Assembly (NCBI GenBank): GCA_001735895.1
Contig: DS021198.1
Coordinates: forward strand, 478,340-542,339
From: Olavius algarvensis Gamma 3 endosymbiont
GTDB taxonomy: Bacteria; Pseudomonadota; Gammaproteobacteria; GCA-001735895
Direction of reading: 5' to 3'
Length of the DNA: 64,000 nt
Shown: positions 11,405 through 53,182 of the stretch, piece by piece
Position numbering within the stretch: the stretch's first letter is position 1
Layout: every line of letters begins with the position of its first letter
The notes under the pieces: model-generated
Databases searched by the model: none
Told to the model about the DNA's origin: nothing
Seen by the model: the letters and a program-made list of their open reading frames with translations, nothing else
Made by a program: the position numbers and the translations under genes

Positions 11405-12262
11405 ATGGCTAACTTGCAATTACCCGATTCCCTGGTCAGTGTGGGCTGGTTACGGCAGCATCTGGATCATGAAAATCTTATCGTCTTGGATTCGAGCTGG
11501 CATATGCCGGCTACCGGGCGTGACGGATTCGAGGAGTGGCGGCAGGAACATATTCCCGGGGCCCGGTTTTTCGATTTCGACGGAAAAATCAGCGATCCCG
11601 ATTCAGAGTTGCCGCATATGATGCCGAGCGAAGAAATATTCACACGCGAAATGCAGGCGCTGGGTTTGAACCAGGACAGCGTGGTTGTGGTTTACGATTC
11701 GATGGGAATGTTTTCCAGCCCACGCGGCTGGTGGATGTTGCGCGCGATGGGATGCGTAAACTGTGCCTTGCTGGATGGCGGCCTGGTCGCCTGGGATGAG
11801 CTCGAATTTCCGATCGAGAGTTTACCGCGGGAACCTGCTTACGAACGCGGCAATTTTGTCGCCAAAATGAACCCGGATTACGTTGCGGACGCGCAAGCGG
11901 TGCTGGCGGCGCTCGACGATGACTCGATTTGTGTGCTCGACGCCCGCCCCGGGCCGCGTTTCAACGGCGCCGCGGAGGAGCCCCGACCCGGGCTGCGCCA
12001 GGGACATATGCCGGGTGCGTTGAATCTGCCTTTCCCGGAGGTATTCAAACACGGATTGCTGAAACCCAAAGATGAACTCAGGGATCTGATTGCGCCGCTG
12101 ATTGGCGATCGCAAGCGCTGCATTTATAGTTGCGGCTCGGGTGTGACCGCCTGCGTAATTGCGTTTGCCGCGCAGCGCGTCGGCTACGATAATTTAGCCA
12201 TTTATGACGGCTCCTGGTGTGAATGGGGCCAGCCCTCTGAATTGCCGGTGGTCACCGACTAG
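11405..12262 (+). CDS. sseA: 3-mercaptopyruvate/thiosulfate sulfurtransferase (tandem rhodanese)
   Basis: 285 aa with a two-rhodanese layout and active-site loop CGSGVTAC. Confidence 0.8.
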   Translation: MANLQLPDSLVSVGWLRQHLDHENLIVLDSSWHMPATGRDGFEEWRQEHIPGARFFDFDGKISDPDSELPHMMPSEEIFTREMQALGLNQDSVVVVYDSMGMFSSPRGWWMLRAMGCVNCALLDGGLVAWDELEFPIESLPREPAYERGNFVAKMNPDYVADAQAVLAALDDDSICVLDARPGPRFNGAAEEPRPGLRQGHMPGALNLPFPEVFKHGLLKPKDELRDLIAPLIGDRKRCIYSCGSGVTACVIAFAAQRVGYDNLAIYDGSWCEWGQPSELPVVTD

Positions 12263-12507
12263 CCTGCATATTGCATGAAGGCGGTACAAACTTCGGAGAA
12301 ATAGCATAGATATCAAAGTATCAAGTCAATTTTCGAGGAAATAGCCGGTTACAGTTTGTACCTGAACGAAATCAGGAAAAATCTGGCTGCCAATCTCGAA
12401 CGATCCCCCTTGAGCCATAGCTACGGCTATGACTCGGCGGGCGATCGTCCGACCTTGTTTGCCAGATTTCCCCTGAGTTTCGTTCCCTTCATGCAATATG
12501 CAGGCTA
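12260..12507. mobile_element. MITE copy 1 (non-coding, 22-nt perfect terminal inverted repeats including TA duplications)
   Basis: TAGCCTGCATATTGCATGAAGG at 12260-12281 is the exact reverse complement of 12486-12507. A second copy is at 36931-37179. No ORF. Confidence 0.85.
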
Positions 12508-13203
12508 GAGCATCCCGGGCAGGCTGCCAATGCCGTCACAGACGATGTCGGCAATGTCTTGCAGGTCGTCGCGCGTGCTGGTGCCGGTTAGCACGCCGAC
12601 GCAAAGCCCGGCGCCGGCGCTTCTGCCCATTTCGATGTCGTGACGATTGTCGCCAACCACGACCACTCGATCCGCGGCGAGCCCCATCGCATTGCAAAAA
12701 GCCAGCACCATGCCGGCCTCCGGCTTCTGACCGTGGCCGCTATCGTAACCCGCCAGGAAATCGAACTGCTGCAGGACATCGAAGGACTGCAGTGTGTTGA
12801 CGATGCCCTGGTGGCTATCGGCGGTAGCAACCCCGAGTTTGTGCCCGGCTTGCTTCAACCGGCTCAGGGTGTCGGCCAATCCGTCGACCGCCGCCGCATG
12901 CTGTGCGCCCAGAACGCTAAAGATTTCATTCAAGCGCCGGCTTATAGCCGTGATGCGATCCGTTTTCCCGATCTCGATTGCCCAGGCTTCGGCGATTTGG
13001 CGATTGTTACCGGCAGCGAGCAGGCTGCCGCCGATAAATCGACCCTGTGCGGCGGCATAGCCATGCCGGGTCAACAAGCGCTCGGCCAGTTGCCGGTCGC
13101 CTGCGGCGAATTCCTGCGCCGCCTGGCGGTAAATCGGTAGCCAGGTTTTATTGAAATCCAGCAGAGTTCCATCCTTGTCGAAAACAATGCCCCGGTATTT
13201 CAT
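12505..13203 (-). CDS. HAD-superfamily hydrolase (phosphatase/phosphonatase-like)
   Basis: Motif I FDKDGTLLDF and C-terminal VVVGDNRHDIEMG (motif IV). Confidence 0.8.
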   Translation of the reverse strand: MKYRGIVFDKDGTLLDFNKTWLPIYRQAAQEFAAGDRQLAERLLTRHGYAAAQGRFIGGSLLAAGNNRQIAEAWAIEIGKTDRITAISRRLNEIFSVLGAQHAAAVDGLADTLSRLKQAGHKLGVATADSHQGIVNTLQSFDVLQQFDFLAGYDSGHGQKPEAGMVLAFCNAMGLAADRVVVVGDNRHDIEMGRSAGAGLCVGVLTGTSTRDDLQDIADIVCDGIGSLPGML

Positions 13204-36205: not shown

Positions 36206-36933
36206 TTCTAATACCGGCTATCGATTTAAAGCAGGGACACTGCGTGCGATTACGCCAGGGCAACATGGATGAAACCACGGTGTTTTCCGACGATCCGGTG
36301 GCGATGGCGGGCAAATGGGTGGCTCAGGGTTGTGGTCGGCTGCATCTGGTTGACCTCGACGGCGCGTTCGAAGGCGAGCCGATCAATGCCGACGTCATCG
36401 AAGAGATCAGCGCCTCCTTCCCCGGCCTGGAAATTCAGATTGGCGGCGGAATTCGATCCATCGAAACGGTTGAAGCTTATCTGGAGGCCGGGGTCAGCTA
36501 CGTCATTATCGGCACCATGGCGGTCAAACGCCCCGAATTTGTGACCCAGCTATGTTCCGAGTTTCCGGGTAATGTCATTATCGGTCTCGATGCCCGGAAC
36601 GGAAAGGTGGCGACGCATGGCTGGGCCGAGGAATCGGAACACGAGGCCAGCGATTTGGCGCGGCGATTCGAGGATCAGGGCGTAGCCGCCATCGTCTATA
36701 CCGACATCAGCCGCGACGGCATGATGGAGGGCGTTAATGTCGAGGCCACCCGCGCGCTCGCCAAATCGATCGACGTGCCGGTGATTGCCTCGGGTGGCGT
36801 CACCGACATGGATTGCATCGTCCAGCTCAATGAGGTCAAGGATTCCGGTATCGAAGGCGTGATCATCGGTCGTGCCCTCTACGAGCGCACCATCAGCCTG
36901 GTAGAGGCGCAAGCCTATATCGATCAGCACTAG
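36202..36933 (+). CDS. hisA: 1-(5-phosphoribosyl)-5-[(5-phosphoribosylamino)methylideneamino]imidazole-4-carboxamide isomerase
   Basis: ATG 36202 overlaps the hisH stop; [17 protein letters not shown]. The stop TAG (36931-36933) coincides with the MITE end. Confidence 0.93.
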
Positions 36934-37179
36934 CCTGCATATTGCACGAAGGCGGCACAAAATTCGGAGAAATAGCATAGTTATCAACGTATTAAGTCAA
37001 TTTTTCCAGAAAATAGCGGGTTACAGTTTGTACCTGAACGAACTCAGGACCAATCTGGCTGCCAATCTCGAACGATCCCCCTTGAGCCATGGCTACGGCT
37101 ATGGCCCGGCGGGCGATCGTCCGACCTTGTTTGCCAGATTTCCCCTGAGTTTCGTTCCCTTCATGCAATATGCAGGCTA
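36931..37179. mobile_element. MITE copy 2, inserted between hisA and hisF
   Basis: Same ends as copy 1 (TAGCCTGCATATTGCACGAAGG ... CCTTCATGCAATATGCAGGCTA), flanked by TA/TA. The right ~125 bp is nearly identical to copy 1. Confidence 0.85.
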
Positions 37180-37197
37180 GCCCGCATAATTTTTGTT

Positions 37198-51753: not shown

Positions 51754-52943
51754 CCCCGCTTGCGCGCACTGCTGTCCGGAATAAATCATAATGCCAACTG
51801 TGCTTGATGTATTTGGAAATCGGATTTCCATTTTCGTCGTCGTTTAAGTACTTCGAATTCGAGTCTGGGTCGCTGGAATAGAGTCGATTTGAGTTCCGCC
51901 AGCCACAGATAAAAACCGCGTCTCGATCCACAAAGTTGCCGGTATAGATCGGCGATGAGATACGTGATCAATGCCACCAGTATCTGGATTTTGACCGCAT
52001 TCTCGCTTTGACCGAGAAACTTTTTGATTTTCAGGTTCTGCTTGAACCGGGACCCCCATCAGGTTGGTTACCAGTACCAGCGGGTCCACATGATCCTCTC
52101 GATGCACCACTATTCGCCGCAACGGTTTGACGTAGTTGTTTTTCCGGCCGCCGCCAGGCCATTTGTTTTTAAACTCAATGACCTCATCCGACAGTATATC
52201 TCCTTCGGTCGAGCGGCTTTTGAGCACCCCGATCGATGCGTTACGCTTTAACCGGGTCACAAAGAAAGCACCCTCCTGGTCGATTTGATGCCACCAATTG
52301 TAATCGCAATATCCCTTATCAAACACATACTTAGCGCCCTTCTCGATTTCAACATTGCGTCCATACTCAATATCGTTCTGGGTCGATGCCGTGATCCGAG
52401 CGTCACAAGGCAACTGCTTGTCGGGGGAATACAGCAGGTGAATCTTCAGGCCCGGAATGCGTGACATACTACGCGCTTGCGTCCACTCATAACCCCGGCC
52501 GCGCAGACAGATCGGCGTCGAGTCCAACAGATAGAGCAAGTCCTTTATCTCATTGCGTACTCGCCGATGAGCCCGGCCCATCAGCTGCTGGCAGAATGAT
52601 TCAAATACCCCGGCATCTCGTTGGCGATTGGCATCCGATAAAGTCGAGCGCTTAATCGGACCGCAGCCCAGGTGATAGTGATGCGCGGAATGACTATTGT
52701 AGCTCACCTCCAACTCGCGCAAGCTCCGACAACCGGACAATTGAGCATACATCAGACACGCAGCGTTTGAAAGTATTTTTAGGAAGGACTTTCAAAAGTT
52801 CGCCAAATCGGGTATTTGTATACATGTTGCAGTGTCCTGAAATTAAGTTGTCGCTTATGGTTTTATTCGTAAAACCCGGGCACTGCAACACTTTCAAATA
52901 CACCAACTTAATTTATTCCGGACAGCAGTGCGCGTAAGCGGGG
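51754..52943 (-). mobile_element. decayed IS4-family-like insertion sequence (~1.19 kb) with ~33-bp terminal inverted repeats
   Basis: CCCCGCTTGCGCGCACTGCTGTCCGGAATAAAT (51754-51786) matches the reverse complement of 52911-52943 (CCCCGCTTACGCGCACTGCTGTCCGGAATAAAT) with 1 mismatch. Encloses the transposase fragments. Confidence 0.8.
51786..52906 (-). pseudogene. IS4-family (DUF4372 + DDE_Tnp_1 type) transposase, in three frames with internal deletions
   Basis: N-terminal fragment 52694..52906 (NTRFGELLKVLPKNTFKRCV), core 51844..52752 (MYAQLSGCRSLRELE...YVFDKGYCDYNWW...) and C-terminal fragment 51786..51977 (ALITYLIADLY...). The usual RWxIE segment before FKQNLKIKKFLG is absent. Confidence 0.75.
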
Positions 52944-53106: not shown

Positions 53107-53182
53107 GGGCCGTTAGCTCAGTTGGTAGAGCATCTGACTTTTAATCAGGTGGTCGAGCGTTCGAATCGCTCACGGCCCACCA
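53107..53182 (+). tRNA. tRNA-Lys (anticodon UUU)
   Basis: Manual cloverleaf: acceptor GGGCCGT/ACGGCCC, D stem GCTC/GAGC, anticodon arm TCTGA-CTTTTAA-TCAGG, T arm GAGCG-TTCGAAT-CGCTC, encoded CCA; 76 nt. Confidence 0.93.

Follow-up and report, generated by a model that had tools for sequence, protein, structure and literature searches.

A MITE in the CTAG shared by two convergent stop codons, and its probable IS1380-family partner

We found that a small non-coding element lying between sseA and a HAD-family hydrolase gene is a MITE that landed in a CTAG common to two convergent stop codons and left both proteins unaltered. The element is small (below about 600 bp) with terminal inverted repeats (TIRs), is bracketed by a flanking duplication for which an empty site exists, occurs in many contexts, has no coding capacity, and carries tips that agree at up to 17 of 19 positions with those of autonomous ISs of other genomes. 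Taken as a whole, the evidence makes it likely that the MITE is moved by a transposase of the IS1380 family, with a 4-bp duplication of a YTAR target. The MITE is itself ordinary and apparently belongs to an undescribed IS1380-related family.

Anatomy and position of the element

The window, that is, the whole 64,000-nt stretch of DNA that was analysed, contains two copies of the element, which span 12259–12508 and 36930–37180 with their flanking tetranucleotides. An earlier note on this DNA had recognized both as copies of one non-coding element, and sequence comparison confirmed this; the two are 92% identical and each is flanked by CTAG. The same note had put their differences at about 20, mostly on the left, and we counted 16 substitutions and one indel inside the element, with 13 in the left half. 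The element is 242 or 243 bp long in the window, contains no transposase gene, and ends in 19-nt TIRs (CCTGCATATTGCAYGAAGG) beginning with CC. In copy 1 the inverted repeat, claimed to be perfect over 22 nt, extends without mismatch to 23 nt if the flanking C and G are included (CTAGCCTGCATATTGCATGAAGG / CCTTCATGCAATATGCAGGCTAG); a single mismatch interrupts that of copy 2. With up to three mismatches allowed, the window contains the 20-mer GCCTGCATATTGCATGAAGG four times, versus no occurrence in 100 shuffles.

Specifically, the left CTAG of copy 1 (12259–12262) includes the TAG (12260–12262) that terminates sseA, an intact gene for a rhodanese / 3-mercaptopyruvate sulfurtransferase (11405–12262, + strand). 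Next to it are the left TIR CCTGCATATTGCATGAAGG (12263–12281, +) and a short stem, P2 (GGTACAAACT / AGTTTGTACC; 12283–12362, +), which encloses a variable A+T-rich loop (12293–12352). The long internal hairpin P3 (12364–12485, +), which is the conserved core of the MITE family, is followed by the right TIR (12486–12504, −). The right CTAG (12505–12508) supplies the CTA at 12505–12507, which is the minus-strand stop codon of the intact HAD-family hydrolase gene (12505–13203, −). Copy 2 (36930–37180, +; element at 36934–37176) lies between hisA and hisF with CTAG on either side; its left TAG (36931–36933) terminates hisA, and hisF begins 18 nt beyond the right CTAG. The MITE accounts in this way for two unusual intergenic spacers, of which one lies within the his operon. 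Removal of the element together with one TA, or equally with one CTAG, from the sseA/HAD locus yields GTCACCGACTAGAGCATCCC.

Copies in other genomes and the empty site

To look beyond the window, GTDB was scanned with CCTGCATATTGCAYGAAGG, one genome per species, which returned 79 loci. Together with the window they hold 47 paired complete elements at up to four mismatches, all bearing the tip described above, and 45 of these lie outside the window in 26 MAGs; further inverted pairs of this kind were what the earlier note had proposed to search for. The complete copies are 96–399 bp long with a mode of 243 (n = 47), the host MAGs are nearly all labelled Gammaproteobacteria, Chromatiales or Thiotrichales, and the flanking DNA is unlike from copy to copy, so that the contexts are unrelated. 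The scanned loci also contain 39 single TIR ends, among which there is no full-length IS; they are contig ends, degenerate copies, solo TIRs and chance matches. About eight matches fall in other phyla. Since this number is close to the chance expectation of about 9 for a 19-mer with one two-fold degenerate position (596 Gb, both strands) and all of them are without YTAR flanks, we regard these matches as noise.

Comparison of the orthologous sseA/HAD junction, also suggested earlier, revealed the predicted empty site GACCGACTAGACTATCCC in a relative, P0011 (contigs L100/L101; SseA 79% identical). The junction there reads GTGACCGACTAGACTATCCCGGGCA, sseA and the HAD gene overlap by exactly 4 nt, and a single CTAG serves both stop codons, which is the overlapping arrangement that had been deduced for the locus before insertion. 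In a further relative (L099) the two stop codons are 3 nt apart. All 24 + 24 same-species contigs read carry both window copies, and a metagenome scan for both flanks 0–20 nt apart yielded no same-species empty site. The MITE is mobile.

Several other structures were seen among the copies. In one same-species contig (L086:3826–4160), sseA and the left part of copy 1 run into the right-hand portion of a third MITE copy, beyond which a PAS-GGDEF-EAL gene stands in place of the HAD gene; either MITE copies recombined or the assembly is chimeric across the repeat. In the third copy, 41 nt of the hairpin apex are deleted and the tip is a variant, CCCGGATATTTCATGAAGG, which parallels the ends of the IS in L139 described below. 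Solo 19-nt tips with YTAR on both sides, such as CTAG-CCTTCATGCAATATGCAGG-CTAG, occur at L004, L006, L015 and L070 (CTAG) and at L035, L045 and L050 (CTAA), and could have arisen by deletion between the near-direct repeats CCTGCAT/CCTTCAT of the two tips or from abortive events. The family is also modular: some copies carry a 66–72-nt insert with a terminator-like hairpin (AAAATCGCTCCGGGCGATTTTTT), and others have an extra module of about 70 nt beside the right tip, which is present in one-ended copies too (modular copies at L041, L069 and L079; L024, L059, L061, L063 and the second copies of L008 and L062; L020 and L027).

The probable IS1380-family partner and the target duplication

In the closest relative (SseA 91% identical; L095–L098), the same sseA CTAG is followed by a different element, which starts with CCTGAATATTTCACC. 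The contigs break about 115–165 nt into this element (in L095 from locus coordinate about 2855). A metagenome scan with a 24-mer from inside it returned 44 loci; the majority lie at contig ends, in keeping with a multi-copy IS. Complete copies are present in L114 and L139; they are about 1611 bp long and encode a protein of 437 aa, or of 448 aa from an upstream TTG. This protein matches PF13701 with E = 1e-164 and the NCBIfam model NF033539, 'IS1380 family transposase', with 396.9 bits against a cutoff of 180; its homologues are very numerous, and several are named IS1380-family transposases by NCBI. The IS in the closest relative is an independent strike on the sseA CTAG.

The tips of these ISs match those of the MITE. 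The left inverted repeat of the L151 IS, CCCGCATATTGCATGAAT, is identical to CCTGCATATTGCATGAAGG at 17 of 19 positions, the left end of the L147 IS (CCTGCATATCGCAC) and the right end of the L114 IS (CCTGCATGTTGCATGAG) align with the same tip, and the right end of the L146 IS (CCCGCATATTGCATGAG) agrees with the right end of the MITE at 19 of 20 positions, the flanking CTAG counted. The left ends of the ISs and the MITE have a layout in common, in which the tip is followed by a stem around an A+T-rich loop; the IS stem, for instance GGCAAAACC...GGTTTTGCC, lies directly before the transposase start codon, and its MITE counterpart is GGTACAAAC...GTTTGTACC. Additionally, the right ends of the ISs contain a conserved subterminal motif, AAATCAGGAATCAGCACCAAATCTGGCC, and the 5′ arm of P3 has a similar one, GAAATCAGGAAAAATCTGGC. 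Tips aside, global alignment gave no significant internal homology between MITE and IS (z at most 2.9). No tblastn match to an IS1380-family transposase was obtained in the window or in any of the 79 MITE loci, no MITE tip is present in 0.32 Mb of the IS-rich relative, and in the DNA examined MITE and IS partner were never seen in one genome. IS1380-family ISs with matching tips and the same target exist, and judging from these shared ends and targets, such a transposase most likely mobilises the MITE.

The IS1380 family is characterized by CC ends and direct repeats of 4–5 bp. The transposase of the probable partner is of this family, the MITE tips start with CC, and the flanks of MITE and ISs include concordant 4-mers, non-palindromic ones among them, along with some discordant pairs. 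Like ISEcp1, IS1247 and IS1380, the MITE has tips starting with CC and a short duplication, here probably of 4 bp; unlike these ISs, it has no transposase, is about 243 bp long, and has an internal sequence that is not recognisable as theirs save for the tips and perhaps one subterminal motif. ISEcp1 produces 5-bp repeats and is not known to prefer CTAG. IS1247 likewise differs from the MITE in giving 5-bp repeats without a CTAG preference (PMC3281130).

According to the mechanism we propose, a DDE transposase of the IS1380 family would act on the MITE in trans. This family is the bacterial kin of eukaryotic piggyBac. IS1380 transposases have been used as a piggyBac outgroup (PMC10813416). The transposase would recognise the CCYGCATATTGCA tips and cut YTAR, usually CTAG, with a 4-nt stagger, which would leave the tetranucleotide duplicated on both sides of the MITE. 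At the sseA/HAD locus, the target was the single CTAG formed by the overlap of two TAG stops, and after its duplication each gene has a complete stop codon, making the insertion silent at the protein level. The target resembles that of piggyBac (TTAA) in being a palindromic tetranucleotide with a central TA.

The flanks of the ISs and the MITE bear on the length of the duplication. Among 43 independent, near-identical IS copies, the left flank is CTAG in 31, TTAG in 6 and CTAA in 6, and the target is therefore YTAR. In the same 43 copies the base beside the CC tip is G in 37 and A in 6; since it varies, we assign it to the target rather than to the element. Direct repeats flanking the MITE include TTAA/TTAA four times, CTAA/CTAA and TTAG/TTAG, and those flanking the ISs include TTAG/TTAG (L150, L152) and CTAA/CTAA (L155–157). 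Because non-palindromic flanks are directly repeated, the duplication is probably 4 bp, a length that fits the repeats of the IS1380 family and its kinship with the TTAA-duplicating piggyBac. The earlier note was right that both stop codons are rebuilt and that neither protein changes; its attribution of this to the element's own terminal G and C is probably wrong, as these bases behave as target DNA, and both stops are most likely rebuilt by a 4-bp duplication of CTAG.

Other flanks are discordant. Around the MITE we observed CTAG/CTAA three times, CTAG/CTAT twice and TTAG/CTAA, and around the ISs TTAG/CTAG (L148/149), CTAG/TTAG (L151) and CTAG/CTAA (L114); L155–159 have one right flank in common and three different left flanks. 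The names of the L148/149 contigs suggest a long-read assembly, and some of the IS contigs are from short reads and may be chimeric. Mutation in old copies and chimeric short-read contigs account for part of the discordance.

These discordant flanks give some weight to a TA-only duplication by the same IS1380-family partner, in which the flanking G and C would be the element's own terminal bases and a preferred CTAG would supply the outer C and G. In the MITE, discordance between the left and right flanks falls on outer positions more often than on inner ones (12 versus 3); the L148/149 (TTAG/CTAG) and L114 (CTAG/CTAA) pairs fit xTA[G...C]TAy; and one IS lineage (L151–153) has three different right flanks that all start with T. 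The palindromic CTAG flanks themselves fit 4 bp and TA alone alike, with the same empty site and with both stops regenerated. The A at the inner position in 6 of 43 otherwise identical IS copies argues against TA alone, however, and the directly repeated TTAA, CTAA and TTAG would need end bases that are non-complementary or co-varying. Repeats in the IS1380 family are of 4–5 bp. With IS1247 at 5 bp (PMC3281130), the family points the same way, and we consider the TA-only duplication assumed in the earlier note to be possible but probably wrong, the bias toward outer positions being what fits it.

A 4-bp duplication could also be combined with a piggyBac-like route, in which the excised element would carry 4-nt overhangs from its old flanks and form a donor/target heteroduplex at the new YTAR; we hold this to be rather improbable. 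If it were true, the mixed flanks CTAG/CTAA, TTAG/CTAG and TTAG/CTAA would be explained as half 'remembered' and half new, excision would be seamless, so that an insertion into a stop codon would be fully reversible, and the MITE family would be a natural record of a piggyBac-like mechanism in bacteria. The flank discordances, together with the DNA-like compensatory pattern of the hairpin described below, offer a cheap handle on whether bacterial IS1380 elements use piggyBac-type chemistry.

An origin of the MITE from an IS630/Tc1-mariner element, with TA duplicated within CTAG, had been favoured in the earlier note and now appears very unlikely. IS630 itself prefers CTAG and duplicates TA, and the TA-centred CTAG target as well as the flank asymmetry just described (outer 12, inner 3) would suit it. 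The only autonomous elements found with matching tips, however, encode IS1380-family transposases, and these ISs have a matching target and even the same insertion site. The full-length IS630-family element with CCTGCATATTGCA ends that had been anticipated did not turn up in the DNA gathered around the MITE tips, the sseA locus and the IS1380-family ISs. Correia elements of Neisseria and RUP of pneumococcus are intergenic, palindromic and co-transcribed with their neighbours, and have a TA-centred target; they duplicate TA only, and RUP is linked to IS630-Spn1. The MITE differs from both in its probable IS1380 partner and in a duplication that is most likely 4 bp.

An origin from an IS5-family element, as for MITEPsy1 of Pseudomonas syringae, is still harder to sustain, although the target and the 4-nt duplication are the same (PMC3189936): the tips CCTGCATATTG are unlike IS5-type ends such as those of MITEPsy1, GGAAGGTCTGAAAAAGCC (PMC3189936), and no IS5-type partner with these ends appeared in the DNA examined. 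MITEPsy1 is the published MITE most like the present one in behaviour. Both are small and non-coding, with TIRs, a CTAG or YTAA target and a 4-nt duplication; MITEPsy1, which is IS5-related and whose transposition was shown experimentally, differs in its tips, its presumed transposase family, its length of 100 nt and its lack of a long internal hairpin (PMC3189936). The papers searched on IS1380 with MITEs or with CTAG yielded no description of this MITE family or of IS1380-derived MITEs. With IS1380-type transposases as the probable movers, the copies tie these enzymes to a MITE family that is widespread among uncultured Gammaproteobacteria of marine and sediment habitats.

Additional IS ends were also observed. 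In L146 (2733–3050), the last ~200 nt of the complete IS, right tip and CTAG included, recur about 290 nt downstream of it, as either a partial tandem duplicate or a one-ended transposition product. Two different IS1380-family insertions, in L146 and in L148/L149, abut the same kind of right flank, CTAG(C/T)TGTGAAT, and in L148 an IS481-type transposase gene adjoins that flank. Elements that create CTAG may seed targets for each other.

The internal hairpin and the flanking stop codons

The element is predicted to fold with −125.4 kcal/mol (z = −13.6) into paired tips, the short stem P2 with its variable loop, and P3. The subterminal inversion pointed out in the earlier note is present (12364–12387 versus 12461–12485), but it does not pair the left end with the right end; both segments lie in the right 60% of the element and form the internal hairpin. 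P3 is about 120 nt long and is paired in 96.5% of cells across 24 standard-length copies. Its compensatory changes were counted in alignment A2, columns 112–249. Here, 18 of 37 pairs are changed on both sides, a value reached by none of 500 shuffles and compared with 2–5 in slid controls, and the long hairpin is maintained by compensatory changes. The double changes make up 80 cells, almost all from Watson-Crick to Watson-Crick, versus 11 cells with a one-sided G-U. Because double changes far outnumber G-U intermediates, a constraint or templated correction at the DNA level is suggested, such as upkeep of a DNA palindrome or a need of the transposition machinery, rather than selection on an RNA.

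The element was also checked for known functions. Rfam covariance models gave no match to it at the gathering threshold or at E ≤ 1, promoter and terminator scans of the element found nothing above shuffles, and its ORFs (50–58 aa) have no match in Pfam. In some metagenomes a 50-aa protein is annotated within the element, as at L080 3952–4104, which corresponds to 12356–12508 (+) and 37028–37180 (+) in the window; with no Pfam match, this is most likely a spurious call inside the MITE. In 14 of 39 oriented copies, the reading frame that terminates in the right-hand TAG runs through the whole element without a stop. We rejected this frame as a gene too, since most of the missing stops are accounted for by the conserved core, and stops in the variable region number 46, 53 and 68 by frame. 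By hand count, copies longer than the standard 251 nt exceed it by a multiple of three in about six of nine apparently independent insertions (p ~0.04).

The MITE is often found at the ends of genes. When ORFs of at least 80 codons are considered, the TAG or TAA beside the element terminates one of them in frame on 33 of 94 MITE sides, compared with 9 of 94 in control frames; for 28 of the 47 copies, one side or both directly adjoin the stop of a gene. Among IS copies from the recent expansion there is no such excess (7 of 43, versus 8 and 5 in control frames). Read most simply, the excess of MITE copies at stops would arise from selection and not from targeting: the transposase would hit any YTAR, insertions inside genes would be purged, and insertions at stop codons would be neutral by virtue of the restoring duplication. 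On this reading, the 4-bp duplication of a stop-containing palindrome such as CTAG or TTAA would make stop codons safe landing sites, at which selection would then enrich old copies (35% of element sides versus about 10% of control frames). The copies also have a preferred orientation. The P2 side adjoins the stop of a gene 20 times and the P3 side 8 times, and when only one side is involved, the upstream gene enters from the P2 side 15 times versus 3.

This orientation bias (15 versus 3 in the exclusive cases), together with the very stable fold and its compensatory changes, could be taken to indicate a non-mobile, ancestral structured intergenic element inherited vertically, for example a regulatory RNA or a terminator, but such an explanation is barely tenable, as the relative's empty site refutes it as the sole explanation, copies stand in dozens of unrelated contexts with YTAR repeats, and Rfam match, terminator signal and promoter signal are all lacking. 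A structural or RNA role could be secondary to mobility.

The sole IS of the window is, as the earlier note had stated, unrelated to the MITE. It lies at 51844–52752 (−) and consists of a 302-aa transposase ORF of the IS4 family (NF033592, 132.8 bits). The ORF is probably truncated, because it covers only positions 36–272 of the 332-position profile. A tRNA gene (53107–53179, +) is located about 350 nt from it.
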